A stretch of DNA of 64,000 bases from an uncultured Chloroflexia bacterium (GCA_963803165.1 CAWDLK010000003.1:42513-106512), one strand, 5' to 3'. Positions 10,785 to 36,643 are shown, counted from the stretch's first letter. Translations and numbers: made by a program. The notes: generated from the letters alone by a model not told the origin.

Positions 10785-11035
10785 TCGCCGCGATCGGTGT
10801 CCTTGGGCGTCCAGCGCCGTCCTAATCGCAGCCGCCCGAATTCGGGAAACGGCCTCGGTAGTGCGTTTCGAACGACGTCGGACGCCCAGAGGCGTGCGAA
10901 AACTCGTCTCGGGCGGACGAGAAGGTGTCAAGAAAGGTGTCAGCCCCTGGGCTTCGCAGACCCGCCGGACGTGACCGCCGCGACCAACCAGCACCCCTCT
11001 GACGCGCCTCCGTTACAGACGGTGCCGCTCCTGGA

Positions 11036-11634: not shown

Positions 11635-11666
11635 CCGGGTGGGCCGCGTCTGTCAAGGTGGTGTAA

Positions 11667-12979: not shown

Positions 12980-13043
12980 CCTTTGTGGAGACCCTCAGGC
13001 TCCTCGTACACCACGTCCCTGGACGCTAACCCCGGCTTCCCCG

Positions 13044-13397: not shown

Positions 13398-13565
13398 CGC
13401 CGATAATCATGCTCCCGGCGACCGCGGTGCCGGGAGCCGAAGCTCGATTGTGTCAATCGCGGCCCGCCTCGGCACCGGTCGCCGCAAGGTTGCCGCGGTC
13501 GTCCTCGACGTCCCGCCGGGACCGCCGGGGATCTCGATTCGCCACGCCAGAGCCCCTCGCCGCCC

Positions 13566-15845: not shown

Positions 15846-15875
15846 GGCCACGGCCACGGCCACGGCCACGGCCAG
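15846..15875. repeat. hexanucleotide microsatellite (GGCCAC)x5
   Basis: ggccacggccacggccacggccacggccag read directly; lies in non-coding island DNA. Confidence 0.85.
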
Positions 15876-16092
15876 CCAAGATGCGCTACTAACGAGGGCA
15901 GATGATCGCCAGTAAGTCAGTGCTCTCGTCGCCGGGGGACTTCATCCATGACTCACAAGACTCGGGGCGATCCCCGCGCCGGACTAAACCCGCCTACCTA
16001 CGTTCCGCGTCTGCTACGCTCAATTCCGCCTTCGGGCACCGCCCCTCGGGGCCAGCTACCTACGGGTCCACACCTCCAAGGAGGTCACGCCG

Positions 16093-16986
16093 ATGCTCAC
16101 CCTTACCCCCTTCGAGCGAAGCCTGCGCGCCCTGCTGGTCGAACACCTCCGCGACGCGGGCGGCGATCAGGACAAGGCCCTCATCACCGAGGAGGACCTC
16201 GACGCACGCATCGCTTCCCGCCCGCGGCACGGCAGCGACGCCCTCCGACCGCCCCACGACCGCTTCTTCCAAGCGTTGAGCCACATCTGCATCTACGAGG
16301 ACGAGCACGGACGGCCGCTTCTCGGCGCCATCGTGGTCGTCGAGAGCACGCGCCGCCCCGGCGATTGGTTTCAGCGCCTCACCGGCCACCTTGGGTTCGA
16401 GACCACCGGCACACGCCTCTGGTCGGACGAGCTGGACGCGCTCATCGATCTCTGGTCGTGGCAGCTCGCCCCGGACACCCTCGTCATCGCCGACATCATC
16501 GACCGTGGCGTCGAGACGCTAGACGCTCATGTCCGCGCTCTTGAGCGTTCCGTGCGCCGGGGCAGCCGTCTCCCCTACCTCAGCCGATCCGCTTCCTGGC
16601 CGTGCCAGCGCAACCACGACTTCATCCCGATGCTCCGGGCCAAGAACGTCGGCGACGCTCCGGCCGTCGATGCCCTCTACTGGGGCATGTCGAACTTCGC
16701 GCCCGCGCACCGCTCGGACCCCTTCAGCCTCGCCGCTGGCGAGGGGCCCGTCGACATCCCGCTGCGTCACTCCCCCACGACGCTCATGCGCGAGGTGATG
16801 GGCGATATGGTCGACGACGTCGCCGAGGTCCTCGTGTACGGCGACGGCGCCGGGCGCTGGCTGCGCCAGCGCCCCCACCTGGCCCAGCGCGCCGACGTCT
16901 GGGTCGACGACGGCCGCGCCGATCCGCCCGCCTGGCTCGCCTGGTACCGCACCATGCTCCGCGAGATTGGCTTGCGCCGTTCCTGA
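16093..16986 (+). CDS. hypothetical protein (297 aa), no recognisable domain
   Basis: Strong RBS AAGGAGG 8 nt upstream of ATG (16073..16080); coherent non-repetitive protein composition; inside island. Confidence 0.6.
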   Translation: MLTLTPFERSLRALLVEHLRDAGGDQDKALITEEDLDARIASRPRHGSDALRPPHDRFFQALSHICIYEDEHGRPLLGAIVVVESTRRPGDWFQRLTGHLGFETTGTRLWSDELDALIDLWSWQLAPDTLVIADIIDRGVETLDAHVRALERSVRRGSRLPYLSRSASWPCQRNHDFIPMLRAKNVGDAPAVDALYWGMSNFAPAHRSDPFSLAAGEGPVDIPLRHSPTTLMREVMGDMVDDVAEVLVYGDGAGRWLRQRPHLAQRADVWVDDGRADPPAWLAWYRTMLREIGLRRS

Positions 16987-17093
16987 ACCCACGCGCCAAC
17001 TCCCTGCAGCGCGATCGCCAGGGCTAGACGTTGCCGTGATTGCTGCCACGCATCACATGCACGAGTAGATGCGACACGCCGCGCAACCTCGAT

Positions 17094-18266
17094 CTACGGT
17101 GGGGCTTGCACATCGCTCCCCGGTAAGGCCTCCATAGGTCCAAGGTGGTAGCCAAGCGACCAAAGTCCGTATGCCACCTCGCGGAAGCAGTCGTAGCTGG
17201 CAAGCCACGCTCGAGCGTTACGGCACTCTGCATCCCGTGGCTCCCACCGGAACCCGTGTTGTGCCATGAAGGAGAGGACTTCGCTTGTCTCGGCGCGTGG
17301 CTGATCGACGGCTAAGTGCCTGGCCACGAGTGCCACGGGGCTGCGGTCAGACGCGTCGAGAGGTGAGCCGAGCGCAAATTCAGACACCCGCTCACCAGCG
17401 GCCATCATCCTCTCCAGTTCTGCCATCAAAGGGGGCCCGACCTCTTTTGCTATTGTGGCGACGCGCTCTCGTATCGACCGTCCGCGCTCGCTTCTCAAGT
17501 AAGCCACCAGAAGCCCAACCGCCACGAGGCCTAACGCCAGCGCTGCCTCCCGTCCGATTGTGCTGGCTAGCTTCTTCGCCCCGCTTACCCCGGCGTACCC
17601 GACGGCGCGCGCCGCGAGCTCGACGCCGTTGACACTGATGCCCATCTCCCCGAGCGTGTAGACATCCACGGCCACGGCGTCTGTCTTGGTATCCGGCAGG
17701 CCCAGCGGACGGAAATCACGACGGTTGTCCGTGACGAGGACGCTAGGTGCGAGGAGTAGAGCCAGCGCTGCTGTCGGGGCATCTGCGGCGTGGAGCGTAG
17801 CCACAGCCGCCACGCGCTGGTCCATCATCGCCTCTGGCGGAACCGGAACCACTCGGACGTTGGGAACGATTACATCGTTCCACACCAGGCGCACGCCTTC
17901 CACGTCTCCCCGGCGATCTGCTATATCCCGCAAGTGGCGGATCGCCTCCTCCATGACACATGGCGTGGCGAACAGGGCGATCCCGGTCCAAATGCTGTAC
18001 CCGGGACTCGCGCGACCGAGCAGTGCCGGCTTGTAGCCCTTGCGAACCGCGTAGTCCACATTGCGGATCAAGACGTCAGCGTCCACAACCACTGGGGTCG
18101 GAAAGAGAAGTGCCCCGCGGCCGGCGGCCCCACTCCTGGGCCCGCTCAACGGTCCTTCCAAACTATTAGCCCTCTGCACTCGGATGCCCGCCAAGGCCCT
18201 GAGCGCGATCCGGTTCTGCCACCGTAGCCCGGGTATCCCCCGGAATCGACGCCGACGCGGCCGCAA
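17094..18266 (-). CDS. PIN-domain protein fused to a C-terminal region with a transmembrane helix; start uncertain (N-terminal ~50 codons overlap upstream gene)
   Basis: PIN acidic residues in order: VVVDADVLI ... CVMEEAIRHL ... LHAADAPTAALALLL ... VLVTDNRRDF; predicted TM ALALGLVAVGLLVAYL; ~150 aa C-terminal domain of unknown function. Confidence 0.55.
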   Translation of the reverse strand: MRPRRRRFRGIPGLRWQNRIALRALAGIRVQRANSLEGPLSGPRSGAAGRGALLFPTPVVVDADVLIRNVDYAVRKGYKPALLGRASPGYSIWTGIALFATPCVMEEAIRHLRDIADRRGDVEGVRLVWNDVIVPNVRVVPVPPEAMMDQRVAAVATLHAADAPTAALALLLAPSVLVTDNRRDFRPLGLPDTKTDAVAVDVYTLGEMGISVNGVELAARAVGYAGVSGAKKLASTIGREAALALGLVAVGLLVAYLRSERGRSIRERVATIAKEVGPPLMAELERMMAAGERVSEFALGSPLDASDRSPVALVARHLAVDQPRAETSEVLSFMAQHGFRWEPRDAECRNARAWLASYDCFREVAYGLWSLGYHLGPMEALPGSDVQAPP

Positions 18267-18858
18267 CTGGCAGGTCCGCCGCCTCCTGCTCCATCGCGTC
18301 GATGACGAAGTCGATCTCGCGACGGGAAACGCTCACGAAGTGGAACCGGGTGACCCATGACCCGTCCCCTGAGGTAAGCGTCTGAGCCAAGTCCTGGTAC
18401 TGCACGAAGCCGTTGGCACCGGCCAAGTAGTCGGCAGGCAGGGGCCCACCCCCTAAAGCCGGCAGCTGGAGAGGAGGGTCTAACCGAGCATCCAGGCACT
18501 CACCGGCGGCGATGATTCCCGCGAGGATTCGGCGCTCCACTGGCGGACCATCCCCATTCCTCGTCGTGAGCACGCCGCGGACGTTGAACGCCGGCCCGCG
18601 CCCGCCGTTCTTCAAGGGCAGCAGGAGATCGCCGCTCTCATAACGCGTGTCGGCCCTTCCAGAGATGTAGTCCGCCGGCAGGTGGGGACAAACCACGGCG
18701 TGCTGCGCCCCCCATTCCCGAGCCCAGGCGTCGCTCAGCGCCTCCTTGCGATCGCGCTGCTCCCTCCGGATCGCGCGAGCATTCCAGACAAACCCACCCG
18801 TGCCGAGCACCACGGAAACGAGCAGGGATGACAGGGCGATCCAGAACGATCCGTCCAT
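18166..18858 (-). CDS. hypothetical membrane-anchored protein (N-terminal TM helix)
   Basis: 230 aa; N-terminal WIALSSLLVSVVLGTGGFVW hydrophobic helix then soluble domain; sits between the 500-aa gene and the PIN gene on the same strand. Confidence 0.45.
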   Translation of the reverse strand: MDGSFWIALSSLLVSVVLGTGGFVWNARAIRREQRDRKEALSDAWAREWGAQHAVVCPHLPADYISGRADTRYESGDLLLPLKNGGRGPAFNVRGVLTTRNGDGPPVERRILAGIIAAGECLDARLDPPLQLPALGGGPLPADYLAGANGFVQYQDLAQTLTSGDGSWVTRFHFVSVSRREIDFVIDAMEQEAADLPVAAASASIPGDTRATVAEPDRAQGLGGHPSAEG

Positions 18859-18924
18859 GCGGTCCAGAATGCTACCCGGCGCGTGCGCAACTCATTGGCG
18901 CCATCCAAACCCTGGGAGCAGCCA

Positions 18925-20427
18925 CTACAGCCCCAGCTGCCAGCGAATGCTTTGGCGCATCCAAGTTTCGAAGGGGTTGCCCGGTACCCCGTGTGGTGGG
19001 GCGCAGTGCTCTGGCAGCAGGGTCACGTGAGCCAGCCGCTCGACCGGCGTTAGCTCCATCAACCGGTCAAGCAACGGCGTCACGGTTTGGAAAAGTCGTT
19101 CCACGAGCCTTCCTGGATCAACGTGGGTGCGGCCCAACACCACTGCCCGGGCGCCCCATAAACTGCGACCGCCCTCGGCGTCCATGGCGGCCAACAGCTC
19201 CGCCTCTTCGCCAGCCGGCAGGCCCACCAGGGTCTCCTGCGGGCCGTGGTCTTGCGTGTAGGCGATGCCCTGCAACGCCGTACCGTGGACCGAGTTCCGA
19301 AGCAGGCGGACGATCGTCAGGACGTGGTTACCCGCGGTTCCATCGGCGACTACGTCAGCGAGGGTCGGCTCCGCCGCATGGCATTTCTGCCACCAGCTGT
19401 TCCGCTGCCAACCGACCAGGTGCTCGTCGTGCTGGATCCCGAGAACGCGGTGGGCAACTCGCGCGGCGATGTCGACGGCAGACATGAAGGAGACGAGGAC
19501 CACGTCCAGCGTGGACAGGGCGTCGTCGCGGAGGTCGTTGTTCTGCTTCTGGTTCAGAGCAAGATGGATGGCGTCGCGTAGCTCGAGAGCTCGGTCCACC
19601 CGTTGCAGAAGGCTACCGGCTAGCAGCAGGAGGGAGTCGTCGCCTGCGCCGGAGGCGTACTGGCCGCAGGCGTTGAACCACCGCCATGCCGCCGGCAGGA
19701 TGTCTCGGGTGCCGACCCAGAAGTAGAGGCCGCGATTGAAGCTGACGTGGTTGAGGATGTGGAACTCGCCCTGAGCCCGAAGGTACAACCCAACGAGCGT
19801 CAAGGCCTCTGCCGGGGTGCACACGGTGGTGCCGCGGTTGGCATACCCGCGGTACTTGTGGAGGAAGGATCGCTCGGTGACATAGAGATCAGCCTCGACC
19901 GCCTGGCTGGCCACCTGGGCCGCAATGGCGTCCTCCCGCCGATGGTTCCGGGCCTCCTCAGGAGCGAGGTGATCATAGGCATCGGTAGAGGTGTCGTTCT
20001 CGGCGACATCGACCGCGTTGCCACGGAGTCCAGCGGTCATGTACCCGTTGGCGTGCTCGGCCACTGTGACACCTCGGTATCCCGGCGGCGCCTCAGGGTT
20101 GACAATAGCCCAGCCGGGGTAGGCCTCGACCCCGGTTCGGTGGAGGACGGGCTGAACGCCGGGAGGAGGTCCGGTTGGAGAATATCGGAAGCAGCGGATG
20201 AGCTCGTTGTCCAAGAGGTCGGAGAGCAGGCTCGTCTGATCCAGGTGCTGAGTGGGGTCCAAGCGCGTCGTGTCTGTCTTCAGGTCAGCATCGATGGCCA
20301 CGACCATCTTGCGCAGCGGTCTTCGGTGAAAGAACACCGGGACCGCTTGACTGGGGTCGGTCGGCCAGACCGGGGCCCTAACGGTCTGCCGCGAGACGTC
20401 GAGCTGCTTCATCGACGCCCACCACAA
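18925..20427 (-). CDS. hypothetical protein (500 aa), no recognisable domain; possible Rx3H HEPN-like segment
   Basis: Long coherent ORF in lower-GC island DNA; segment RLLRNSVHGTALQ read directly; no assignable motif. Confidence 0.5.
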   Translation of the reverse strand: MWWASMKQLDVSRQTVRAPVWPTDPSQAVPVFFHRRPLRKMVVAIDADLKTDTTRLDPTQHLDQTSLLSDLLDNELIRCFRYSPTGPPPGVQPVLHRTGVEAYPGWAIVNPEAPPGYRGVTVAEHANGYMTAGLRGNAVDVAENDTSTDAYDHLAPEEARNHRREDAIAAQVASQAVEADLYVTERSFLHKYRGYANRGTTVCTPAEALTLVGLYLRAQGEFHILNHVSFNRGLYFWVGTRDILPAAWRWFNACGQYASGAGDDSLLLLAGSLLQRVDRALELRDAIHLALNQKQNNDLRDDALSTLDVVLVSFMSAVDIAARVAHRVLGIQHDEHLVGWQRNSWWQKCHAAEPTLADVVADGTAGNHVLTIVRLLRNSVHGTALQGIAYTQDHGPQETLVGLPAGEEAELLAAMDAEGGRSLWGARAVVLGRTHVDPGRLVERLFQTVTPLLDRLMELTPVERLAHVTLLPEHCAPPHGVPGNPFETWMRQSIRWQLGL

Positions 20428-20602
20428 CTCCGTCGTACGCCGGGGCGCGTTCCGGGTGCCTGCAAGCGACTAAGCCAGATGGAGGCCCGGTGCGTGGGGG
20501 TGCCGCGAGTCCCGACCAAGCTGGCGGCCCAGGCGGTAGCCGGGGTGACGGCGAGAGCGAAGAGAAGGGCAACGAGGGGAACGAAGCGACGGGCAGCGGT
20601 GC

Positions 20603-21103
20603 TCACGGCTCGGTGTCCGGAGGCGGGGGCAGGATCGAGACCAACTCGCCGGTGATCTGCACCCCATGGTGGTCGATGAGCTCCTGGAGGTACAGGCCGA
20701 GCTGTCCGCGGAGCTTCCCGAGTGCCTCATGGAGCGCCCCGGACTCGGGGCCCCAGCCGACGGGTCCACCCCACCGGCGACTACGCAGACCCCGCTGCAC
20801 TTCATCGAGGAATGCCCGGCACGCGGCTGCCATCCTCCGCAGGGTCACAGCGAGGTCAACGTCGCGGGGAAGGCGTCCGATCTCGTCAACGAGGTGACGC
20901 CGGATTTCGATGACCGAGACCACGCAGTGGTCGAGGATCTCGATGTCCAGCGGGTTGTATAGGACCCGGCGATCCTCCAGGAACGCGACCAGTCTTGCGA
21001 GCACCTCCTTCTCGACATCCGGTAGGTTCTCCCAGCCAACGCCACCGCCGACGACGGGAAGGCTCACGCTGGTGAGCCGCTTGCGGATACGAGGCCGCGG
21101 CAT
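20603..21103 (-). CDS. hypothetical protein (166 aa)
   Basis: Coherent composition, same strand and upstream of 500-aa gene; no motif recognised. Confidence 0.4.
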   Translation of the reverse strand: MPRPRIRKRLTSVSLPVVGGGVGWENLPDVEKEVLARLVAFLEDRRVLYNPLDIEILDHCVVSVIEIRRHLVDEIGRLPRDVDLAVTLRRMAAACRAFLDEVQRGLRSRRWGGPVGWGPESGALHEALGKLRGQLGLYLQELIDHHGVQITGELVSILPPPPDTEP

Positions 21104-22582
21104 CCGGGCAACGATACCTCGCGAGCCGGGGAAGATCTGGCCCCCCGGCCAGCGGAGCCAGCATGGCCGGCAGCAGCAGCGCCTGCGCTCGGAGGCTCAC
21201 CGCCCCCTTCTCGGGCGTCTCTGGATTCCAAGACCCGAGGTGTCAGGGGTCAACGCATCGCCATCGCGGGGCTTCTGGGCCTTCCCGCGGTGGCCCCGAT
21301 GGGTAAAGGTTTGAGGACCTTCAGGGGCCAGCGCAGCCGGCGGACGGCGTCACGGGCCCGGCGCTGCTCGGCCTGGGCTCGCCGGCTAAGCAGGCGGTAG
21401 CTGCCGTCGCGGAGAGCGGCGATGGCAGGGAGTGCCAGCTCCATGGTGGCCATCGCTTGGGCGGCGAGGACGTCGAGCTTCTGGAGCACCGCCCGGGCGT
21501 CGCGGAGCAGTGTCTCGGTCCGTTTGACCTCCCGGGCGAGGTTGAGCGGATCCCGCGTGGTCGTCGCATCGCCTCCCGTCGCATCATCCCCGGACGCTCC
21601 ATCCGCTGCGTTCGCGATGCAGCCTTCCGATCGCTGCGCTCCTCCCCATCGCCCAGCACGCCGCGTACGTCTGCATTCCCCTCGCCCCACGCCTGCTGGC
21701 GCGTTCGCGCTGTTCTCGGATACCGTACCCTATGCACCCTCCGGTCATCTGTTCGATCCACCCTCCCTGGCGCCACCCTCGACGCCCTCCTGGCACTCGT
21801 CCCGGCGCAGCCCGGGGCGCGGTGGACGGGGCAGCGAAAGGAGGGTTTCGGGGCTCGGCAGCTGCACGCGATGCGCAGGTGTCAGCGGTCGAGGGCAACC
21901 GGCACCGGGCCTCCTGGAGCTCCTTTGAGCACGCGTCCGTGTGCTCAAAGGAAGAGGGGATCTGGTTCGGGATAGGGTGGCGGTGGCCACTCAGCGTCGC
22001 GCCGGGCTGGGTCGTGGCGTGCACTGCCTCGCCCTGCCCGACGACCACAGCCAGTACGAGCTCGGTGAGCGCGAGACCCGGGACCACCCTTCTCCTCACC
22101 GCGAGGGCGAAGGGTGAGACAGCAGCGCATGCGGTTGGCGCGAGCGGCCGACGACAGGCCGGTACGGGTCGTTTGCTGCGTACTGCGCGATCGGTCACGC
22201 CCTCCTCGAGAAGCGCTGGGCTGTAACAAGTCCGTGACGGCGCAGGATCACTCAGCCGCTCCTGTACCCGCAAACGCACCGTCATGAACGCGTCTGTACC
22301 CCCATACGGAGCTAAGGATCGCGTCTGTACTCGCAGTCCCTTCGAACGATGTGGCACCCGTACGCAGGGCTCGGTGCGTACTGTGCGATCGGGTCGGCTT
22401 CGCGCTGAGAGTCGGCGGGACTGCGTACGGGGTTCGTACGCCCCATCTGCTCGCATGGGCCCGTGGAGCGACGAGCCTGGTCACTGTCGGACGGCACGGA
22501 GATGCCCGGGGCGGCACCCCTCCGCACAGACCGCGACGTGACAGCCAACGCCGATGACGTCGGGCCTTCGGGCCCGAACAAC

Positions 22583-22780
22583 ATGGCTTCGGTCGCCTCT
22601 CCGCAGCTCCTGCTATCGGTACCCGAGGCGGCTCGGGCGCTCGGGATCGCCCGCAGCTCGCTCTACGTCCTGATGGACCGTCATGAGCTCACCAGCGTCT
22701 CCATCGGGCGCCGACGGCTGCTCCCTGCGCGCGCCCTCGAGGAGTACGTCGACCGTCTCATCGAACGTTCCCGCTGCTGA
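22583..22780 (+). CDS. xis: excisionase / AlpA-MerR-like HTH DNA-binding protein
   Basis: LLSVPEAARALGIARSSLYVLMDRHELTSVSIGRRRLLPARALEEYVDRL, typical excisionase-family HTH; start placed at the internal Met (MASVASPQ) because the upstream part of the track ORF is non-protein-like; adjacent to int. Confidence 0.65.
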   Translation: MASVASPQLLLSVPEAARALGIARSSLYVLMDRHELTSVSIGRRRLLPARALEEYVDRLIERSRC

Positions 22781-22825
22781 CCCCGGGGGTCCAGGAACGG
22801 GGCGGTCCCCTCCACGCTCCTCTGG

Positions 22826-23077
22826 TCAGGCTGCCGGCTGGACCGGGCGCACCGCCTCGCGAAGCCCCTCCGGATCGAGGTCGGCCCCGTTCGGCCACAC
22901 CACCGTGCCGAGCTCCGGATCGACCTGCACACGGCGGAAGATCGCCAGGTCGCGCAGCGGCTCGAACACCTCACCCCAAAGCTGCTCGGTGAGGTCGATG
23001 TCGCCGACGCTGCCATCGCTGAAGGTGAGCCGCAGCTCGTACCCCTCGCGCGGCTCGACGCTGATCACCTTGACCAC
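22826..23077 (-). CDS. DUF2442 domain protein
   Basis: 83 aa; MVKVISVEPREGYELRLTFSDGSVGDIDL...EPLRDLAIFRRVQVDPELGTVVWPNGADLDPE matches the DUF2442 consensus. Confidence 0.75.
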   Translation of the reverse strand: MVKVISVEPREGYELRLTFSDGSVGDIDLTEQLWGEVFEPLRDLAIFRRVQVDPELGTVVWPNGADLDPEGLREAVRPVQPAA

Positions 23078-23086
23078 GACCCCATC

Positions 23087-23356
23087 CTAAGCCAGCGGCT
23101 CGATGGTGACCAGCGGGCGCTGTTCGAGCACCCGCTGCCAGTTGTCGCGTAGCTCGTCGAGATGGAGGGACGCCCACTCCATCACGTGCCCGAGCGCCCG
23201 GGGAGGGAGCCAGCCGTCGAGGACCGCGAGCGGCTCGATGCCGATCGAGGCCTCGTGCTCGCCGTAGAGGGCGTGGAAGTGAGCGGCGTGATGCCGGCCC
23301 GCCGCCTCCCAGTACATGGCGATGACGATGCCGTAGAAGGCGCTGATCCGGGGCAT
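23087..23356 (-). CDS. DUF4160 domain protein (partner of DUF2442)
   Basis: 89 aa; MPRISAFYGIVIAMYWEAAGRHHAAHFHALYGEHEA, conserved DUF4160 N-terminus; abuts the integrase stop. Confidence 0.75.
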   Translation of the reverse strand: MPRISAFYGIVIAMYWEAAGRHHAAHFHALYGEHEASIGIEPLAVLDGWLPPRALGHVMEWASLHLDELRDNWQRVLEQRPLVTIEPLA

Positions 23357-24648
23357 CAGGCTTCGGGCCGACGACCCATGCGCCGGCGGGCTATCTCTTC
23401 GACAGCCTCACGCTGCATGGTCGGGGTCACGTGCGAGTACAAGTCGAGGGTGATGCCCACCGAGGCGTGGCCGAGCCGCTCCGAGGCCACCTTCGGGTGC
23501 ATCCCGTTCTTGAGCCAGTCCGTCGCCGCTGAGTGGCGCAGGTCGTGGAAGCGGACGTCGGGGAGGGCGGCGCGCCGGAGGAGACCATCGAGGGCGCGAG
23601 TGAGGGTGGTAGTGCTCAGGTAGCGGCCGAACTCGTTGGGGAAGACCAGGTCCTGCTCCACCCACATGGACCCAGCCCGGAGCCGGTCCTGCACCTGGCG
23701 CGCCCGATGTGCACGGAGGGCCTCGACTGTCTCGGGGAAGAGCACCAGGTTGCGCCGCGACCGGCGTGATTTCGGCGCGCCGATGGTGAGCTTCGACCGC
23801 AGTGCCCCTTGCAGCGACCCGGTGACCGACAGCATCCCCCGCTCCAGGTCGACGTCGCGCCAGCGAAGCCCGAGGATCTCGCCCTGGCGCAGCCCCTCCC
23901 GAATGGCCAGGACGAGGAGCGCCTCCAGCCGGTCGCCACGGACCGCCTCCACGAAGCGGTCGTAGTCGGCGTCGGCGAGGACGCGCATCTCGGTGCGGGC
24001 CATCGCCGGACGGGCGTCCTCGTCGACCAGGTCCGCCACGTTGCGGGCGACCTTGCCCTGGCGCACCGCCTTGGCCAGGGCGCGATGGATGACGGCGTGA
24101 ACGTGGTGGGCGGAGGTGGAGCTCAGCCCCATGCCGCCCTCGGCCGGGCTAGCGGTCATCCGCCGGTAGAGACGCTCCAGATCGCCCGGCTCCAGCTTCA
24201 CCAGAGGCTTGGTGGCGAACTCTGAGCGGAGGAGGTGGGCCCTCACGTAGCGGGAGTAGAAGTCGATCGTCGCGGGCTTCAGCTTCGCGGGGAGGCTGGC
24301 GACCCACTCCTGGAGCCAGGCCCCGACGGTGACCCGGGCGTCGGGCAGCGGGAGGCCCTCACGCTGCGTCTGGAGGGCCTCGGCGAGGGCCGCCTCGGCC
24401 TCGTCCTGGCTGTGCCGGTAGAACAGGCGGTAGGTCCCGTCCTCGAGCCTCAGGCGGCCGACCCAGCGGCCATCCTTCCGCTGGATGACGCCCCCCGTGC
24501 CCTTCTTCCGGCGGCCGCGGCGCGTCTCCTGGCGGGCGCCGCGCTCCGCTGACACCCCGTGTGACACCCTGCCGCGGCGACGGGGGCTCTCCGGCTCTTG
24601 ATTCCCGCTATCCTCGTTCACGTCGGCGCTCCTGGTGGAGCCGGCCAC
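23356..24648 (-). CDS. int: tyrosine-type site-specific integrase (phage integrase family)
   Basis: N-terminal SAM-like domain (GVIQRKDGRWVGRLRLEDGTYRLFY), catalytic HDLRHSAAT...LGHASVGITLDLYSHV (R..HxxR..Y); GTG start; an alternative GTG at 24621 has an AGGAG RBS. Confidence 0.9.
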   Translation of the reverse strand: MAGSTRSADVNEDSGNQEPESPRRRGRVSHGVSAERGARQETRRGRRKKGTGGVIQRKDGRWVGRLRLEDGTYRLFYRHSQDEAEAALAEALQTQREGLPLPDARVTVGAWLQEWVASLPAKLKPATIDFYSRYVRAHLLRSEFATKPLVKLEPGDLERLYRRMTASPAEGGMGLSSTSAHHVHAVIHRALAKAVRQGKVARNVADLVDEDARPAMARTEMRVLADADYDRFVEAVRGDRLEALLVLAIREGLRQGEILGLRWRDVDLERGMLSVTGSLQGALRSKLTIGAPKSRRSRRNLVLFPETVEALRAHRARQVQDRLRAGSMWVEQDLVFPNEFGRYLSTTTLTRALDGLLRRAALPDVRFHDLRHSAATDWLKNGMHPKVASERLGHASVGITLDLYSHVTPTMQREAVEEIARRRMGRRPEA

Positions 24649-24751
24649 GTCCCCGGCCGTTGCAGCAGCGCGGGGACTTCACACCTCTAGATGCTATAAG
24701 GTGTCAGATAGGGTGTCAACCTGATACCTTATGAGCGAAATTCCCTGACAC

Positions 24752-24825
24752 GGCGACGTAGCCAAGTGGTAAGGCACGGGTCTGCAAAACCCTGATCGTG
24801 GGTTCGATTCCCACCGTCGCCTCCA
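24752..24825 (+). tRNA. tRNA-Cys (anticodon GCA), CCA encoded
   Basis: Manual fold: acceptor GGCGACG/CGTCGCC, D-arm GCC-AAGTGGTAA-GGC, anticodon loop CTGCAAA (GCA), T-arm GTGGG-TTCGATT-CCCAC, discriminator T, CCA; C27-U43 mismatch in anticodon stem. Confidence 0.88.
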
Positions 24826-30093: not shown

Positions 30094-30888
30094 ATGGGGG
30101 ACGCGACCTCCTCCCCTCCCCTGCTCGCCGCTCTCGACGGCGCGGTCCTCCTCCTCACCCTCAACCGGCCTGCCACGCTCAACAGCCTGACCTCCGAGCT
30201 GCTGGCGGCTCTGGGCCGGGTGCTCGACGAGGACGCCGCCGAGCCCGCGGTCCGGGCGGTGGTCATCACCGGCGCCGGCCGCGGTTTCTGCTCCGGCCAG
30301 GACCTGGCCGAGCTGCCCGACCGGGTGAGCGGCGTCGACGTCCGCGCCCGGCTGACGGCCGACTATCTGCCCGTTGTCCAGGCGATCGCGACCCTGGAGA
30401 AGCCGGTGCTCGCGGCGGTGAACGGGGTGGCCGCGGGAGCCGGCTTGGCCCTGGCCCTGGCCTGCGACCTCCGGCTGGCCGCCGAGACGGCGACGTTCGT
30501 CCAGGCCTTCGTCCGCCGTGGCCTGGTCCCTGACGCAGGCGCCAGCTACTTCCTGCCCCGGCTGGTCGGCCTGGGACGGGCGCTGGAGCTGACCCTGCTC
30601 GGGGACCCCGTCTCGGCGGCGGACGCCGATCGGATCGGCCTGGTCAACCGGGTGGTCCCCGACGCGGAGCTGATGCCGGCCGCTCTCGAGCTCGCCGCGC
30701 GCCTCGCGGCCGGGGCCCGGTCGGTCGGGCTCGCCAAGCGGCTGCTCCGCCAGAGCATGGGGGCGTCGCTCACGCAGCAGTCTGCCCGGGAGGCGGACAC
30801 CCAGGCCGAGGCGGTGGCCACCGAGGACTTCGCCGAGGGGCTCGCCGCCTTCCGGGAGAAGCGCCCACCGCGGTTCCGTGGGCGCTAG
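30094..30888 (+). CDS. enoyl-CoA hydratase/isomerase (crotonase) family protein
   Basis: AVVITGAGRGFCSGQDL oxyanion-hole motif, AAVNGVAAGAGLALALACDLRLA second motif. Confidence 0.88.
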   Translation: MGDATSSPPLLAALDGAVLLLTLNRPATLNSLTSELLAALGRVLDEDAAEPAVRAVVITGAGRGFCSGQDLAELPDRVSGVDVRARLTADYLPVVQAIATLEKPVLAAVNGVAAGAGLALALACDLRLAAETATFVQAFVRRGLVPDAGASYFLPRLVGLGRALELTLLGDPVSAADADRIGLVNRVVPDAELMPAALELAARLAAGARSVGLAKRLLRQSMGASLTQQSAREADTQAEAVATEDFAEGLAAFREKRPPRFRGR

Positions 30889-30924
30889 GGGCGATCCGAG
30901 GCTCGCGGTATACTTCGCCCTCGC

Positions 30925-30999
30925 GCGGGAGTAGCTCAGTGGTAGAGCACTACCTTGCCAAGGTAGGGGTCACGGGTTCGAGCCCCGCCTCCCGCTCCA
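30925..30999 (+). tRNA. tRNA-Gly (anticodon GCC), CCA encoded
   Basis: GCGGGAGTAGCTCAGTGGTAGAGCACTACCTTGCCAAGGTAGGGGTCACGGGTTCGAGCCCCGCCTCCCGCTCCA; anticodon loop TTGCCAA; 7-bp acceptor GCGGGAG/CTCCCGC. Confidence 0.9.
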
Positions 31000-31159
31000 G
31001 CCCCCTTCGCTCCGACGTGGTGGCCTGGCCTCACCCGGCCGGATGGCGAGACCGGTTGAGGGCCCCCTGTGCGGCACGCCCGAGTTCATTGAAGTCCGGC
31101 CATGCAGCCCTGGCCGCCTCGGCTGCCTCTTGAGCCCCCGGAGTGTCGCGCAACATCGA

Positions 31160-32358
31160 TGCCGTGTAACCGCACTGGGGGTCAGACCGCGCCAACTCAA
31201 TGAGGTGGTCGTTGAAGCGTCCGCCCCACATCCGAAACACGTCCTCCAGTGGCCCACAGCCGAGGCGATCTAGTGTCCCGTACCGGAGATTCGTAGACAA
31301 ACCGTTCGATGCTGGCCAGGATCTCGTCAGCGCTCGTGACCCAGACGAAGGGGTGCGGGTCGGCGTTGCAGGTGGCGAGATAGAGGCGGATGTCGTCCTC
31401 CAGGGCCCGGGTGCTGCGGTGCACGCCACGGCGCAGCTGCTTGCGGGTCAGCTCTGCGAACCAGCGCTCGACCTGGTTGATCCACGACGAGTAGGTCGGG
31501 GTGAAGTGGAGCTGAAAGCGCGGGTGCTGCAGCAGCCAGCGCTGGATCGACGCCGTCTTGTGGGTGCTCAGGTTGTCCAGCACCAGGTGGAGGTCGAAGT
31601 CCTCGGGCACCTCCTGGTCGATGCGGTCGAGGAAGCTGCGGAACTCGACGGCCCGGTGCCGGCGACGGACCTGGCCGATCACCTTGCCGGTGGCGACATC
31701 GAGAGCGGCGAACAGCGAGGTGGTGCCGTGCCGCCGGTGGTCGTGGGTCTGGCGCTCCACCTGACCCGGCCCCATGGGCGGCATCGGCTGAGTGCGGTCC
31801 AGGGCCTGGATCTGGGTCTTCTCGTCGACGCACAGCACCAGGGCGCGGTCGGGGGGGTTGAGGTAGAGACCGACGATGTCGCGCACCTTCTCGATCAGCT
31901 GCGGGTCGGTGGAGAGCTTGAAGTGCTCGCTGCGGTGCGGCTGCAAGCCGAAGGCCCGCCAGATCCGCTGCACGCTGGTGTGGCTGAGCCCGCTCGACCC
32001 CGCCATCGACCGGGTGCTCCAGTGGGTGGCGTCGCGGGGCGTCGACTCCAAGGTCTTCACCACCACCGCCTCGACCTGGTCATCGCTGATCTTGCGGGGG
32101 ACGCCACTGCGCGGCTCGTCGAGGAGGCCGGCCACCCCACGGCTGATGAACCGGGACCGCCACTTGCCGACCGTGGCGTTGGTGACCTGCAGCTCCTCGG
32201 CCACCGGGGTGTTGGTCACGCCGCCGGCACAGCGGAGCACGATGCGCGAGCGCAAGGCCAATCCCTGCGCCGTGGTGCGCCGCCGGGCGAAGCGCTGGAG
32301 CGTCCGCTGGTCCTCCGGGGTGACCACGAGCGGAGCCTTGGGACGACCTCGGGTGGTC
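31160..32358. mobile_element. IS630-family insertion sequence (boundaries approximate), inserted into an older IS630 copy
   Basis: Encloses an intact IS630-type transposase; the right end abuts a truncated paralogous transposase fragment; IRs not resolved by eye. Confidence 0.45.
31197..32327 (-). CDS. IS630 family transposase (HTH + DDE)
   Basis: 376 aa; N-terminal HTH region, [17 protein letters not shown]-region [24 protein letters not shown], typical of IS630/Tc1-mariner. Confidence 0.85.
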
Positions 32359-32610
32359 TTGGGTGGCGGCGCCCTTGGGCACCTCCCGGTCGATGCGACG
32401 GATGAATCGCAGAACCTCGTCGTGCCGATGCCGAGGCAGACATTGGCCGATGACCGTGCCGGTCAGCACGTCGAGGGCGGCGAAGAGGGTGGTGGTCCCG
32501 TTGCGCTTGTAGTCGGGGGTCAAAGTGCCGGCCCGCCCCGACTTCATCGGCAGGGTGGGTTGGGTACGGTCGGGCGCCTGAATCTGCGACTTCTCGTCCA
32601 TGCAGAGCAC
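32350..32610 (-). pseudogene. truncated IS630-family transposase fragment (middle portion only)
   Basis: Translation [18 protein letters not shown]...[19 protein letters not shown]...RIDREVPKG is paralogous to the central part of the intact IS630 transposase; frame decays where the intact IS begins. Confidence 0.6.
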
Positions 32611-32626
32611 GACAGCTTGCCACCTG

Positions 32627-32656
32627 TCGCCTTTGTGATATATACTGCCGATCTAG
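32627..32656 (+). promoter_or_regulatory. sigma70-like promoter upstream of vapB (TTGCCA -35, TATATA/TATACT -10) in an AT-richer patch
   Basis: ttgccacctgtcgcctttgtgatatatact read directly; spacer 16-18 nt; followed by RBS CAGGAGG and vapB ATG at 32681. Confidence 0.35.
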
Positions 32657-32680
32657 ATCATCCACCTCAGGAGGCTCCCA

Positions 32681-32923
32681 ATGTCGGACACCGGCATCGC
32701 CAAGCTATTTCGCAACGGGCGGAGCCAGGCGGTTCGGCTACCGCAGCAGTTCCGATTCAGCGGTGACCAGGTCCGCGTCCGCCGCGTCGGGAGCGCCGTC
32801 ATCCTCGAACCGATCCTGAGTCCCGAGAGCTGGTTCGCGGAGCTCGACCGCCTCGGACCGGAGCCATTCATGGTCGAGGGTCGGGATCAACCGCCGACAC
32901 CGCCCGGCCGCGACCTGTCGTGA
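32681..32923 (+). CDS. vapB: VapB antitoxin (AbrB/MazE/SpoVT-fold)
   Basis: IAKLFRNGRSQAVRLPQQFRFSGDQVRVRRVGSAVILEP matches the swapped-hairpin antitoxin N-terminus; ATGA overlap with vapC. Confidence 0.8.
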   Translation: MSDTGIAKLFRNGRSQAVRLPQQFRFSGDQVRVRRVGSAVILEPILSPESWFAELDRLGPEPFMVEGRDQPPTPPGRDLS

Positions 32924-33330
32924 GTTACTTGCTCGATACGAATGCCTGCATCGCCCTCATCAACGGGAGACCAACGGCGGTGAGGCGACGATTCGAGGAG
33001 GCGAGCCAGGCGGCAGCCCGGATCTCCACGTCGTCGGTGGTCACCTTCGAACTCTGGTACGGTGTGGCGAAGAGTGCTCGACCCGAAGCCAACGCGGATC
33101 GGCTCGTGACGTTTCTAGCGGGGCCCGTCGACGTCATCGACTTCGATGACGACGATGCGCAGGCGGCCGGACAGGTCCGCGCCTCGTTGGAGGCGGCGGG
33201 AACCCCGATCGGCGCCTACGATGTGTTGATCGGCGGTCAGGCGCTGCGGCGCGGCGCCACCCTGGTGACGGCCAACACCGACGAGTTCCGCCGGATCGCC
33301 GGCCTCTCTTGGGAGGACTGGGGCGCGTGA
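32920..33330 (+). CDS. vapC: VapC toxin (PIN-domain ribonuclease)
   Basis: MSYLLDTNACIALI N-terminus, conserved acidic residues (D6, E44 region, D...TANTDEFRR); 136 aa. Confidence 0.85.
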   Translation: MSYLLDTNACIALINGRPTAVRRRFEEASQAAARISTSSVVTFELWYGVAKSARPEANADRLVTFLAGPVDVIDFDDDDAQAAGQVRASLEAAGTPIGAYDVLIGGQALRRGATLVTANTDEFRRIAGLSWEDWGA

Positions 33331-33494
33331 CTCGCCTTCGCTGACCTCGACAGCGGCACCGGCTGTGACCCCCACGAGAACCAGACCATCGTGGACCCCT
33401 AGGGCCATGGGGGCCACGACTTGTGAAATGAGGCAGAGCGCGGGTCGCCCGAGGACAATCCGCGTTCGGAAACGGCCGAAAGACCCGCTCCCTT

Positions 33495-33541
33495 CTTGCC
33501 AAGGTAGGGGGTCACGGGTTCGAGCCCCGCTTCCCGCTCCA
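33495..33541 (+). repeat. 47-nt degenerate direct repeat of the 3' end of tRNA-Gly (anticodon loop to CCA): att-type island boundary
   Basis: cttgccaaggtagggggtcacgggttcgagccccgcttcccgctcca vs tRNA-Gly 3' part (one extra g, one C>T); ~40 nt upstream of it is also similar to the region upstream of the second copy at 34346. Confidence 0.8.
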
Positions 33542-33617
33542 GCCTCCTCGAGGCGAGTTCAGATGACCCCGTCGAGGGCGCCCCGGAAGAACGCAGGATG
33601 CGCACACGCTCCTCTCG

Positions 33618-33887
33618 TCACGGCTGATCTCCGTAATGGTACCGAGCCTGGAGGACGACGATGTCCTCGCCCTCAATCAGGTACACGAGCCGGTGCTCGT
33701 CGTCGATCCGGCGCGACCAGCATCCCTGAAGGACGTGTCGCAGTTGCTCGGGCTTGCCGATACCCGTGAATGGATCCCGGGTGACGTCCTGAAGCAACCG
33801 GTGGATCCTCTTCACCGTCGTGCGGTCCGTCGACTGCCAGTAGAGATAGTCTTCCCATCCGTGCGGGGTGAAGACCAGCCGCATCAC
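33618..33887 (-). CDS. yoeB: YoeB/Txe family toxin (type II TA, mRNA interferase)
   Basis: 89 aa; MMRLVFTPHGWEDYLYWQ...KRIHRLLQDVTRDPFTGIGKPEQLRHVLQGCWSRRIDDEHRLVY...ARYHY matches the YoeB consensus. Confidence 0.85.
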   Translation of the reverse strand: MMRLVFTPHGWEDYLYWQSTDRTTVKRIHRLLQDVTRDPFTGIGKPEQLRHVLQGCWSRRIDDEHRLVYLIEGEDIVVLQARYHYGDQP

Positions 33888-34132
33888 GCCAGCTCGTACG
33901 CTTGCCGGTCCTCCGCTCGGGCCTGTTCCAGGCTCTCCAGTAGCCTCCTGGCGTTCGCCGGGACCCTAAGCAGATATGCCGTCGCTTCGAGGGCGTCGTA
34001 GTCGGCTCGGGCCATCAGCACGGCATCGCCCCGCTTGGAGGTGATCTCCACTGGCTGACGATCGTTGTTGACCTGTTCGATCAGAGGAAACAGGTTCCTC
34101 CGTGCGTCGCTGGCGGTTACAACCATATCCAT
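33884..34132 (-). CDS. yefM: YefM/Phd family antitoxin
   Basis: MDMVVTASDARRNLFPLIEQVNNDRQPVEITSKRGDAVLMARADYDALEATAYLLRVPANARRLLESL; stop overlaps yoeB start (ATGA); start moved to the internal Met because the track N-terminus is Gly-rich non-protein-like. Confidence 0.75.
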   Translation of the reverse strand: MDMVVTASDARRNLFPLIEQVNNDRQPVEITSKRGDAVLMARADYDALEATAYLLRVPANARRLLESLEQARAEDRQAYELA

Positions 34133-34345
34133 GCCCTCTTGACTGGTACAGGATATGGTACCACTCGATAGCCCGGAGCGGAGCTCTCGGAGGTTGGGAG
34201 GGGCTCCCCAGCGACGCCCCCCACCGTGACCCTCAACCATTCCAAGACCCCGCTCCCCGTCGGGTCGCGATGGGTGAAATGAAGGCGCGCTGGAATCCTC
34301 AGGGGGCAGCCTCGGGTTCGGAGCCGTGCCGAAACGCCCGCGCCT

Positions 34346-34372
34346 CTTGCCAAGGTAGGGTCACGGGTTCGA
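34346..34372 (+). repeat. second, shorter degenerate copy of tRNA-Gly 3'-half (anticodon loop to T-arm): relic att site
   Basis: cttgccaaggtagggtcacgggttcga matches tRNA-Gly 30952..30980 with one g missing; upstream ~60 nt resembles the sequence upstream of the 33495 repeat. Confidence 0.6.
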
Positions 34373-34402
34373 CGGCACACTTCGCGGATGTCTCGGATCC
34401 CC

Positions 34403-36643
34403 TCAGTGGGTTCGCGCGGCCGCGACGCCGGCGGATCTCCGGCGCCGGCGGCTCAGCAGGAAGCCGAGGATGCCGGCGACCAGCACGATCGCGACCCCGA
34501 CGCCCACCAGCAGCGGCATCGCGGATCCCGCAGGGGTCGAGGTGCCCACCAACTCGGCGACCATCTCGACGACACTGTTGTCGCTGTCGGTGATGTAGAT
34601 GTCGCCGGCGGCGTCCACCGCCACTGCCCAGGGAGAGGTGAGGTCGGAGCTGGTCGCCGGACCGGCGGTCGGCGCTCCCGCATCTCCGGTCCCCGCCACC
34701 ACCGAGAGAACCCCTGACCTGGTCACCTTCTCGACGACGCCGTTGCCGGAGTCGGCGATGTAGAGATTGCCCGCCGCATCCACCGTCACGCCGCCCGGTC
34801 CGGAGAGGTGAGAGTTGGTCGCCGGGCCAGGTGTCGGCGCGCCCTGGTCTCCGGTCCCCGCCACCACCGAGAGCATCCCCGACGTGGTCACCTTCTCCAC
34901 GACGTCATTGCCAGTGTCGGCGATGTAGACGTGGCCGGCGGCGTCCACCGCCACCCCTAGCGGATCGGAGAGGTCGGAGCCGGTCGCCGGACCGGGTGTC
35001 GGCTTCCCCGGGTCTCCGGTACCGGCGACCACCGAGAGAGTCCCCGACGGCGTCACCTTCTCGATGACGTCGTTGCCCGAGTCGGCGATGTAGACGTTGC
35101 CGGCGGCGTCCACCGCCACCCCGCTGGGGTGACCGAGCTCGGAGCTGGTCGCCGGGCCGGGTGTCGGCTTCCCCGGGTCTCCGGTGCCGGCCACCACCGA
35201 GAGCGTCCCCGAGCGGCTCACCCTCTCCACCACATCGTTGGCGGTGTCGGCGATGTAGAGGTCTCCGACGGCGTCCACTGCAACCGCGGAGGGAAAGTCG
35301 AGGTCGGAGCTGGTCGCCGGGCCGGGGGTCGGCTGACCGAAGCGCCCGGAGCCGGCCGCCACCGAGAGCGTCCCGGATGGCGTCACCTGCTCCACCACGC
35401 TGCGGTCGGCGTCTGTGATGTAGAGGTTGCCATCGGCGCCCACCGCAACCCCACCGGGCTCGTCGAGCTGGGAGCCGATCGCCGGGCGGGGGGCGGGCAA
35501 TCCGACTTTTGCGGTCCCCGCCACCACCGAGAGCAGCCCCGATGGCGTCACCTTCTCCACCACGTTGTTGTCGGCGTCGGCGATGTAGAGGTCGCCGGCA
35601 GCATCAACCGCCACCGCGGTGGGCGTGCCGAGGTCGGAGCTGGTCGCCGGGCCGGGGGTCGGCGCCCCCAGCGTCCCGGTCCCGGCCACGACCGCGAGCA
35701 TCCCCGATGGCGTCACTTTCTCCACCACGTGGGCGAGGAAGTCCGCGATGTAGAGGTTGCCCGCCGCGTCCACCGCCAGCCCCTCGGGCAGGCCGAGGGC
35801 GGCGCTGGTCGCTGGCCCGGGTACCGGCGCTCCCAATCCGCTGCGTCCGGTCCCGGCCACCACCGAGAGCGTTCCCGAGTGCGTCACCTTCGCCACAACG
35901 TTGTAGTCGGTGTCGGCGATGTACAGGTTGCCGGCGGCATCCACCGCCACGCCGTAGGGCTCGCCGAGGCGGGAGCTGGTCGCCGGTCCCGGAGTTGGCG
36001 CTCCCGGACGGTCAGTCCCGGCCACCACCGACTCCTGCCCCGACGCCGTAACCTCCTCGATCTCGTCGCTGTCGATGCTCGCGATGAAGAGGTTGCCGTC
36101 GGCATCCTCCGCCACCGCGTTGGGAGCCCCGCCCGCCTGCCCGAGCCCGGCGGCCACCGACAGCGTCCCGGATGGCGTGACCTTCTCCACCATGTTGTTC
36201 CCGTTGTCGGCGATGTACAGATTGCCGGAGCCGTCCACCGCCAGTCCGCTCGGCCCCTCCAGCTCGGAGCTGGTCGCCCGACCGGGTGTGGGCTTCCCCA
36301 CGCGACCGTCCCCGGCCACCACCGACAGCCTCCCCGACGGGGTCACCCTCTCCACCACGTCCCTGCCGCTGTCGGCGATGTAGAGGTTGCCGGCGGCGTC
36401 GACTGCCACTCCATAGGGACGGTCGAGCTCGGAGCTGGTCGCCCGGCCGGGCGTGGTCCCGGCCACGACGCAGAGATCACGGACCTGGGCGGTGCAGGCC
36501 GGGCCCTCTCGGCCGCCGCTCGCCGCGACCTGAGGGGCGCCCGGCAGCGTTGCGACCAGCAGCACCAGGGCGGCCGCCAGCAGAGCCGCTTGCCCGGGGC
36601 CCTCGCCGAAGGTGCCGGCCCTCAGCTGGACGGCGATGCGCAT
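34403..36643 (-). CDS. NHL-repeat cell-surface protein (signal peptide, ~13 NHL repeats, C-terminal TM anchor)
   Basis: Repeated GVAVDAAGNLYIAD(S/T)GN(D/N)VVEKVTPSG(T/L)LSVVAGTG units; N-terminal signal-like LLAAALVLLVATLPGAPQVAA; C-terminal LLVGVGVAIVLVAGILGFLLSRRRRR. Confidence 0.8.
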   Translation of the reverse strand: MRIAVQLRAGTFGEGPGQAALLAAALVLLVATLPGAPQVAASGGREGPACTAQVRDLCVVAGTTPGRATSSELDRPYGVAVDAAGNLYIADSGRDVVERVTPSGRLSVVAGDGRVGKPTPGRATSSELEGPSGLAVDGSGNLYIADNGNNMVEKVTPSGTLSVAAGLGQAGGAPNAVAEDADGNLFIASIDSDEIEEVTASGQESVVAGTDRPGAPTPGPATSSRLGEPYGVAVDAAGNLYIADTDYNVVAKVTHSGTLSVVAGTGRSGLGAPVPGPATSAALGLPEGLAVDAAGNLYIADFLAHVVEKVTPSGMLAVVAGTGTLGAPTPGPATSSDLGTPTAVAVDAAGDLYIADADNNVVEKVTPSGLLSVVAGTAKVGLPAPRPAIGSQLDEPGGVAVGADGNLYITDADRSVVEQVTPSGTLSVAAGSGRFGQPTPGPATSSDLDFPSAVAVDAVGDLYIADTANDVVERVSRSGTLSVVAGTGDPGKPTPGPATSSELGHPSGVAVDAAGNVYIADSGNDVIEKVTPSGTLSVVAGTGDPGKPTPGPATGSDLSDPLGVAVDAAGHVYIADTGNDVVEKVTTSGMLSVVAGTGDQGAPTPGPATNSHLSGPGGVTVDAAGNLYIADSGNGVVEKVTRSGVLSVVAGTGDAGAPTAGPATSSDLTSPWAVAVDAAGDIYITDSDNSVVEMVAELVGTSTPAGSAMPLLVGVGVAIVLVAGILGFLLSRRRRRSAGVAAARTH

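Follow-up and report, generated by a model that had tools for sequence, protein, structure and literature searches.

We examined a stretch of 64,000 nucleotides (nt) from an uncultured Chloroflexia bacterium (GCA_963803165.1 CAWDLK010000003.1:42513-106512), referred to in its entirety as the window, in which an intact tRNA-Gly(GCC) gene is followed by two partial copies of its own 3' part and by two small islets, each carrying a predicted toxin-antitoxin pair: vapBC in islet 1 and yefM-yoeB in islet 2. Together with related loci in other genomes, the region at positions 30925-34372 is most probably an array in which integrative elements accreted in tandem at tRNA-Gly(GCC) and then decayed. Its features are listed below, with P and P' denoting the arms upstream and downstream of a tRNA-derived core, IS an insertion sequence and ORF an open reading frame.

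30925-30999, plus strand: intact tRNA-Gly(GCC) gene (ARAGORN; Rfam tRNA, 65.7 bits)
30955-30999, plus strand: attL-type core, the 3' part of tRNA-Gly
31000-31196: spacer between the tRNA gene and the IS630 gene, with no Pfam match for its ORFs
31197-32327, minus strand: IS630-family transposase ORF, 376 amino acids, apparently full length (Pfam DDE_3, 2e-23, and HTH_32/29/28/23)
~32374-32619, minus strand: older IS630 transposase fragment, equivalent to residues 161-242 (tblastn, 60% amino acid identity, E 2e-28)
32617-32646, plus strand: sigma-70-like site TTGCCA-18-TATACT before vapB
32681-32923, plus strand: vapB antitoxin gene (AbrB/MazE fold), 80 amino acids (PF04014, 1.6e-6)
32920-33330, plus strand: vapC PIN-domain toxin gene, 136 amino acids (PF01850, 3e-20)
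33338-33494, plus strand: P arm of cassette 1, ~155 nt, starting 8 nt after the vapC stop codon
33495-33541, plus strand: copy 1 of the tRNA-Gly 3' part, an internal att core running from the anticodon loop to CCA
33542-33583, plus strand: P' arm of cassette 2 (GCCTCCTCGAGGCGAGTTCAG...), 42 nt
33618-33884, minus strand: yoeB toxin gene, 88 amino acids (PF06769, 3e-38)
33884-34126, minus strand: yefM antitoxin gene, 80 amino acids (PF02604, 7e-18; gene call in L001)
34199-34345, plus strand: P arm of cassette 2 (within the profile match 34199-34372)
34346-34372, plus strand: copy 2 of the tRNA-Gly 3' part, 27 nt, truncated after GGGTTCGA

Repeat comparison confirmed the original prediction that two copies of the tRNA-Gly 3' part, both starting in the anticodon loop and the first with two differences, lie downstream of the tRNA gene; both are co-oriented with it. 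Copy 1, at 47 nt a full-length core, aligns with positions 31-76 of the tRNA apart from an additional G (GGGGG for GGGG) and a C-to-T change, and past CCA it stays identical to the tRNA-Gly locus for 7 nt more. Copy 2 has one G deleted and ends at TTCGA. The 13-mer GTCACGGGTTCGA occurs three times in the 64-kb window against 0.13 expected occurrences, and is absent from the rest of it. Identity to the tRNA begins at anticodon-loop T32 in 16 of the 16 junctions compared; a start in the anticodon loop is reportedly the classic sublocation of tyrosine integrases.

The similarity extends well beyond the tRNA-derived cores. The sequences preceding the two copies had been proposed to resemble each other over ~60 nt; the resemblance is real but that length was too short, and alignment of the arms together with an independent profile shows that each copy has ~155 nt of conserved arm upstream of it. 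In both window arms the distance from AAATGA to TTGCC is exactly 64 nt. The junction profile was built from 14 junctions, all from other genomes and none from the window, to avoid circularity. Against the 64-kb window it matches 33338-33583 (E 2e-42), covering arm, core and downstream motif, and 34199-34372 (E 6.8e-25), covering an arm and a core that ends abruptly, the alignment stopping exactly at 34372; a third match is confined to the core of the true tRNA (30951-31004), which no P' arm follows, and no further match was found anywhere in the window. The full junction unit of arm, tRNA 3' half and P' motif is 257 nt long. Across 16 junctions both the P arm (~155 nt) and the P' motif (~25-45 nt) are conserved, the arm in blocks (CGACCCC..., GTCTCATGCGGGTCACGA, AAATGAGGG, ATTCGG, CGAAA and CGCCC.CCCTT); after CCA many junctions carry the motif G-N7-GAGGCGAGTTCAGCTGA...GAACTC, and the P' motif recurs in at least eight.

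The junction alignment shows no 3-nt periodicity in the arms, which rules out a coding or pseudogene remnant, and block-wise conservation without periodicity or RNA covariation fits protein-binding DNA. The P' arm of cassette 2 with its core is 95.8% identical to the sequence directly after the true tRNA-Gly gene in L005 (related loci are given L numbers throughout), and the P arm of the same cassette is orthologous to the arm beside yefM in L005, L099 and L110. The proposal that these are att arms of related elements is thus borne out, as junctions in relatives bear the same P arm and many of them a P' motif, and these sequence comparisons support the view that the repeats have the properties of att junctions left by integrative elements related to one another.

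Islet 2 measures 804 nt from core to core with both arms included, and consists of the 42-nt P' arm, two genes, a promoter region of ~70 nt and the P arm; a Pfam search agreed with the expectation that yefM-yoeB is its only cargo. The yefM gene comes first and shares nucleotide 33884 with yoeB, both genes are intact, and YoeB is 88-93% identical in amino acid sequence to copies in five other arrays; the two are predicted to form a type II toxin-antitoxin pair. The same prediction is made for vapBC in islet 1, where the antitoxin gene overlaps the downstream PIN toxin gene by 4 nt and both genes are intact and equal in length to their homologues. VapB shares 96-99% amino acid identity with copies in L086, L097 and L110, and an identical VapC protein is found on four public contigs. 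The suggestion that vapBC has its own promoter accords with the sigma-70-like site, the only one in 30850-34450 (0.2 expected), which falls in a stretch upstream of vapB that is conserved with L097, L102 and L086. The islets have a G+C content of 59-68%, against 71-77% in the flanks.

Islet 1 is less complete at its tRNA-proximal end. The P' arm expected there is missing, the profile match ending at 31004, and the spacer that follows (31000-31196) matches no related locus. The apparently full-length IS630 ORF shares ~70% nucleotide identity with annotated IS630 transposases on Streptomyces and Rhodococcus plasmids; we found no terminal inverted repeats for this copy and no inverted-repeat partner for a candidate IS630 end at 31270-31298. 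The older fragment shows direct repeats (D1/D2) of 70-72% and a weak match to DDE_3, and it abuts the full-length copy on one side only. The IS630 gene, the older fragment and vapBC predicted for this segment are therefore all present (Pfam, tblastn), but nesting of one IS630 within the other is unsupported, given this one-sided position. The vapBC cassettes of relatives become homologous to the window at the edge of the old fragment, and their tRNA-proximal part holds a GHKL ATPase gene, which indicates that IS activity has removed this part of islet 1. As had been noted originally, no integrase is left: Pfam found none in 30925-34372.

The same architecture is present in relatives, which are uncultured soil bacteria (Dormibacteria). 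A contig of GCA_052139795.1 matches the window at 99.96% identity, and the flanking enoyl-CoA hydratase (ECH) has its best relatives in metagenome-assembled genomes of Candidatus Dormibacteria/Dormibacterota. The nearest of these, L005 (77% amino acid identity, and ~80% nucleotide identity in the flanks), has the same synteny (tRNA-Leu/tRNA-Cys/ECH/tRNA-Gly) and three co-oriented copies of the tRNA-Gly 3' part downstream of the tRNA gene that bound three segments: segment A, 6 kb, with defence-like genes (PDC-M55A/NsnB-like ATPase, a PDC-M34A/B pair and a HEPN-TPR protein); segment B, with an aldo-keto reductase (AKR) and a yefM-yoeB pair of 81% nucleotide identity to that of the window; and segment C, with an RHH-PIN pair. 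A pattern search of peat metagenomes returned 17 contigs, many with two to four tRNA-Gly copies. The number of junctions per array in relatives is 2-5, always on the tRNA strand, with five in 8.5 kb in L086 (profile), and degenerate and partial junctions are common among them.

Cargo across the arrays is rich in toxin-antitoxin and defence genes. The vapBC pair of the window adjoins a GHKL-type ATPase in L086 and L102, L099 has a cassette with a SoFic-like Fic protein as well as a yefM-yoeB cassette, further arrays are present in L102 and L110, and other cargo includes a LuxR regulator, the AKR and IS fragments. The order of cassettes differs between genomes: the AKR gene precedes yefM-yoeB in L005 and L086 and follows it in L114-117, and yefM-yoeB follows vapBC in the window and another cassette in L092. 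The left boundary beside yoeB also varies, being 76 nt in the window, ~5-10 nt in L086/L115 and the AKR gene in L005. L114-L117, from one Dormibacteria species (GCA_050012735.1 and peat contigs; ~9750-10350), differ further: the T arm of their tRNA-Gly is of another type (GTCGCGAGTTCGAGCCTCGTC), yoeB ends 8 nt from the tRNA, tRNA-fragment copies are lacking, and of the P arm just the distal half is left, located between yefM and a pseudogenised AKR gene; this arrangement looks like a 'fixed' end state of the array.

Comparison with an empty site is constrained by what the relatives offer, L005 being occupied and L114-117 lacking repeats but having yefM-yoeB and a partial arm, while more distant Dormibacterota have no tRNA at this position. 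When VapC and ECH were used as exact-protein queries to find a vacant site or a polymorphism, every contig recovered either had the window's arrangement or broke at the tRNA. In several samples, short-read contigs (L119-L122, L103-L105, L086, L087, L089 and others) end at tRNA-Gly or inside the array, as is expected from the 47-nt repeats, so array length and polymorphism are under-sampled in these assemblies. In L087 (1-6700) a cassette and P arm are preceded by an IS630 copy and then by housekeeping genes (by eye, isopropylmalate dehydrogenase and a citramalate synthase-like gene) and not by the tRNA-Gly region, reflecting either an IS-mediated rearrangement or a chimeric assembly.

At the other end of the window array, the truncated att core is adjoined by a gene for a 746-amino-acid NHL-repeat beta-propeller protein with a C-terminal membrane anchor (34403-36643, minus strand; stop codon at 34403), whose internal repeats of ~165 nt are 77% self-similar in DNA. 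This right flank lacks synteny with L005, in which the array is followed by a Zn-dependent dehydrogenase. Truncation of the last core and loss of synteny in the right host flank together indicate that the distal end of the array has been lost.

To date the cassettes relative to their hosts we compared synonymous divergence (dS, by NG86) of cargo and flanking genes. Between the window and L005, six flanking genes have dS of 0.40-0.67, with yoeB at 0.57 and yefM at 0.49; between the window and L086 the values are 0.55-0.71 for flanking genes and 0.27-0.58 for the four genes of the toxin-antitoxin pairs. Cassette dS thus matches flank dS, such that the cassettes date back to these species splits and have been passed on by vertical descent, and recent horizontal spread is ruled out. 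The two changes in copy 1 were gained since the split from the L097/L110 lineage (dS 0.09-0.24), and sites in the window's own lineage look neutral to decaying. The description of the islets as relics is apt for the window, given the mutations in copy 1, the truncation of copy 2 and the lack of a tRNA-proximal P' arm, but it does not extend to the lineage as a whole, where cores are conserved above neutral expectation; att sites may therefore not be inert everywhere.

Searches beyond the window recovered at most a trace of the enzyme. None of the ~20 cassettes in ~8 related arrays contains an intact integrase. A 57-amino-acid ORF with a tyrosine-recombinase-like box (...LRVRQGKGAKDRIVPL...) is positioned directly after tRNA-Gly and the P' arm in L088 (9762-9950) and in L102-L109, where it is cut by an IS3 (rve_3) fragment; this int/IS3 junction survives, shortened, in segment C of L005 (18720-18760), and its presence in L088/L102 and L005 indicates that the cassettes share an ancestor. 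From its sequence, the ORF is a probable, if weakly supported, tyrosine-recombinase remnant. A homologue search with the integrase-like 61-amino-acid fragment returned only itself, and one with a 290-amino-acid ORF from the cassette that looks youngest had no matches at all, the query itself included. Screening all loci for the motifs GKGxKxRxVP and HxLRH found only the remnant and the unrelated integrase of an island at tRNA-Cys, described below. Three scans of viral contigs gave zero matches, whether the 45-nt core was used by itself, with the P arm or with the P' motif, and the parent element is absent from the 17 metagenome loci and from the loci fetched through proteins.

We propose that elements of one family, each encoding a tyrosine integrase that crossed over in the anticodon loop, would have integrated successively into tRNA-Gly. 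Each would have carried in a tRNA 3' part of its own and pushed the prior junction, with its P arm and tRNA 3' fragment, farther downstream. Later loss of the integrase and backbone genes would leave small att-bounded islets resembling cis-mobilizable elements (CIMEs): islet 1 retains vapBC and a P arm, its tRNA-proximal part having been overwritten by IS630 copies, and islet 2 retains yefM-yoeB only, between a P' arm and a P arm. Both are old, their vertical inheritance reaching back beyond the divergence from the closest relatives sampled. It is reasonable to suppose that the intact toxin-antitoxin pairs probably explain why the islets persist, and they could do so through post-segregational killing of deletants, a role in defence, or both.

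Several observations sit less comfortably with an array of decayed elements. The tRNA-fragment cores are identical at 26-27 of 27-28 positions, whereas orthologous P arms are 59-67% identical, which is about neutral as predicted by a dS of ~0.5, and AAATGA is intact in 7 of the 9 junctions that were found without using it. This core conservation reflects either gene conversion from the tRNA gene or present or recent selection for recombination. Cassettes as compact as islet 2, at 804 nt, are not obviously produced by independent random deletions. An integrase-bearing parent with this attP is present in no collection searched; the sole database match of the 57-amino-acid ORF is a XerC-like recombinase at E 0.58, with no match in Pfam; and there is no completely empty tRNA-Gly site among the recovered relatives.

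An alternative explanation for these features, which we consider unlikely, is that the cassettes, each with P' arm, cargo and P arm, are still excised and re-inserted at tRNA-Gly by a tyrosine integrase acting in trans, its gene lying at another place in the genome or on a visiting element, much like trans-mobilised CIMEs. Such mobility would account for so many arrays without an intact integrase, for compact cassettes of mostly one operon each, for the permuted order of the AKR and yefM-yoeB cassettes, and for cores and arm motifs conserved above neutral; moreover, both arms are often kept, so that every internal junction is laid out as a complete attP. However, the agreement of cassette and flank dS gives no sign of recent transfer, the variable P' boundary beside yoeB is unexpected for precise site-specific units, degenerate and truncated junctions are common (both window copies among the altered ones, copy 1 by mutation and copy 2 by truncation), no candidate integrase was found, and core conservation need not involve a recombinase, since gene conversion from the tRNA gene could account for it. 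In the same vein, tRNA-Gly(GCC) in Dormibacteria may be a cassette platform for toxin-antitoxin and defence genes, a functional analogue of the integron, although we think this improbable; if it were so, the conservation of cores and arm motifs would reflect selection for recombination competence.

Two further readings were considered. The copies are short and near their parent gene, and in L114-117 yefM-yoeB sits directly beside the tRNA with no repeats, as might be seen if the repeats were local partial duplications or pseudogenes of tRNA-Gly arising by replication slippage or unequal crossing-over and unrelated to integrative elements, with the toxin-antitoxin genes as ordinary neighbours. 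We regard this as very improbable, since all copies start at the same anticodon-loop nucleotide and none has a 5' half; the conserved arm of ~155 nt before each copy, which is not derived from the tRNA, already contradicts it; the segments differ completely in cargo and have lower G+C; and in L115 the distal part of the P arm is still present after yefM. The absence of 5' halves and the presence of conserved arms likewise dispose of the alternative raised in the original prediction, that the copies are fragments of tRNA-Gly paralogues. It is scarcely credible that the 257-nt unit is instead a functional RNA or a mobile miniature repeat. It does contain inverted repeats of 8 bp (AATGAGGG/CCCTTATT) that, together with a TTCGG/CCGAA hairpin, can pair in 86% of cells, and has a mean folding z-score of -1.0, but a hand-built closing stem and hairpin show no covariation above shuffles, RNAalifold gives only the T-arm helix with a positive covariation term, Rfam matches nothing beyond the tRNA, and the copies occur only downstream of tRNA-Gly and are always co-oriented. 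An accretion array of decayed elements thus remains the interpretation that we favour.

The window also contains a 14-kb integrative element at tRNA-Cys(GCA), with the following features.

10748-24825: tRNA-Cys island
10748-10784: 37-nt direct repeat of the tRNA 5' part, from the 5' end to the anticodon loop, bounding the island
11703-12932, minus strand: IS256/Mutator transposase gene
22583-22780: HTH_17 excisionase-like gene
22800-23356, minus strand: two small ORFs adjoining the integrase gene
23356-24648, minus strand: Phage_integrase gene (PF00589, 9e-23)
24752-24825: intact tRNA-Cys

Duplication of the 5' half of a tRNA, as at tRNA-Cys, is the less common geometry. GGTGTCA repeats are located near both ends of the island, and in L005 the distance from tRNA-Leu to tRNA-Cys is ~800 nt, corresponding to an empty site for the island. 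At the position of the two small ORFs the L118 gene table has a DUF4160 protein, and the neighbouring ORF looks DUF2442-like by eye; DUF4160 and DUF2442 are often seen together as a putative toxin-antitoxin-like module. The tRNA-Cys att repeat (10756-10777/24760-24781) and the tRNA-Gly core (30956-30976) share the ordered blocks GCCAA, GGTA[A/G]GG and CACGGGT, with a local alignment score of 21 compared to 11.1 +/- 2.2 in shuffles (p ~0.002), a post hoc comparison that includes two 2-nt gaps. This similarity may hint that the resident integrase could see both sites, or it may be due to chance. As a trans-acting enzyme for the tRNA-Gly array this integrase was rejected, because its arms (the GGTGTCA repeats) and target are different and L005 has an array without the island; for the post hoc core similarity only, it is a weak lead.

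The islets have close counterparts among known systems. For islands derived from elements of the integrative and conjugative type (ICEs) and the integrative and mobilizable type (IMEs), a three-step model of integration, decay to a CIME and accretion has been described (PMC5704250). CIMEs and accreted ICESt1-related islands in Streptococcus (PMC5704250) are, like the islets, flanked by att sites, devoid of integration and transfer genes, and lined up one behind another at a target gene's 3' end. The islets have attL/attR-type boundaries and contain no integration or transfer genes, and an origin through integration, decay and further integration (PMC5704250) fits them. Unlike the Streptococcus CIMEs they are far smaller (0.8-2.5 kb, mostly one operon), their host is an uncultured member of the Dormibacteria and there is no known functional parent ICE or IME; at least one att site in the window is truncated.

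The tandem islands at ssrA in Dehalococcoides, 15 of which have no integration module (PMC3146451), are similar in that many islands are lined up downstream of one small-RNA gene, with direct repeats of its 3' end, additional nucleotide conservation beside the repeat and a strain-variable hotspot; about half lack an integration module and have been proposed to be CIMEs (PMC3146451). They differ in having a tmRNA target, a 20-bp repeat, a serine recombinase (DsiB) and reductive dehalogenase cargo, whereas the Dormibacteria arrays have a tRNA-Gly target, a 47-nt core that starts in the anticodon loop, an arm of ~155 nt and toxin-antitoxin and defence cargo. In Shewanella a toxin-antitoxin system stabilises a composite island at tRNA-Trp (PMC8978831), and by analogy the toxin-antitoxin pairs plausibly stabilise the Dormibacteria islets.

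Chromosomal integrons likewise have arrays in which a recombination site recurs between short cassettes, most of them of one operon, and their toxin-antitoxin cassettes are thought to stabilise the array; the islets also carry such pairs. However, the tRNA-Gly arrays have no IntI, attI or Pc, their repeated unit is a 257-nt attP-like sequence with a tRNA fragment and not an attC hairpin, there is no sign of structure-based recognition, and cassettes lie in both orientations. Membership of the integrons is excluded by the lack of IntI and attI, of an attC-like structure, and of an integrase beside the tRNA in any array. Actinobacterial phages and elements that target tRNA-Gly, such as mycobacteriophage L5 (attP/attB), integrate into the 3' part of a tRNA-Gly gene, where the common core reconstitutes the tRNA, and their attP is a multi-site region with arm-type sites. 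In general outline the islets would resemble these elements; they differ in lacking an integrase.

We conclude that with this locus an uncultured lineage adds one more case to a phenomenon already known. Through it, a conserved integration hotspot is recognised in the little-studied Dormibacteria, with an att anatomy of a ~155-nt P arm, a 47-nt core of tRNA 3' sequence and a P' motif, at which toxin-antitoxin and defence genes accumulate as att-bounded islets that outlive their integrases over long evolutionary time, and the 257-nt junction profile is a practical probe for the parent element and for island limits in these metagenome-assembled genomes. The one aspect that is not routine is that the cassettes are old and devoid of integrases, yet their att cores are strongly conserved; if the conservation were to reflect continued use and not gene conversion, the locus would be a new type of cassette platform.

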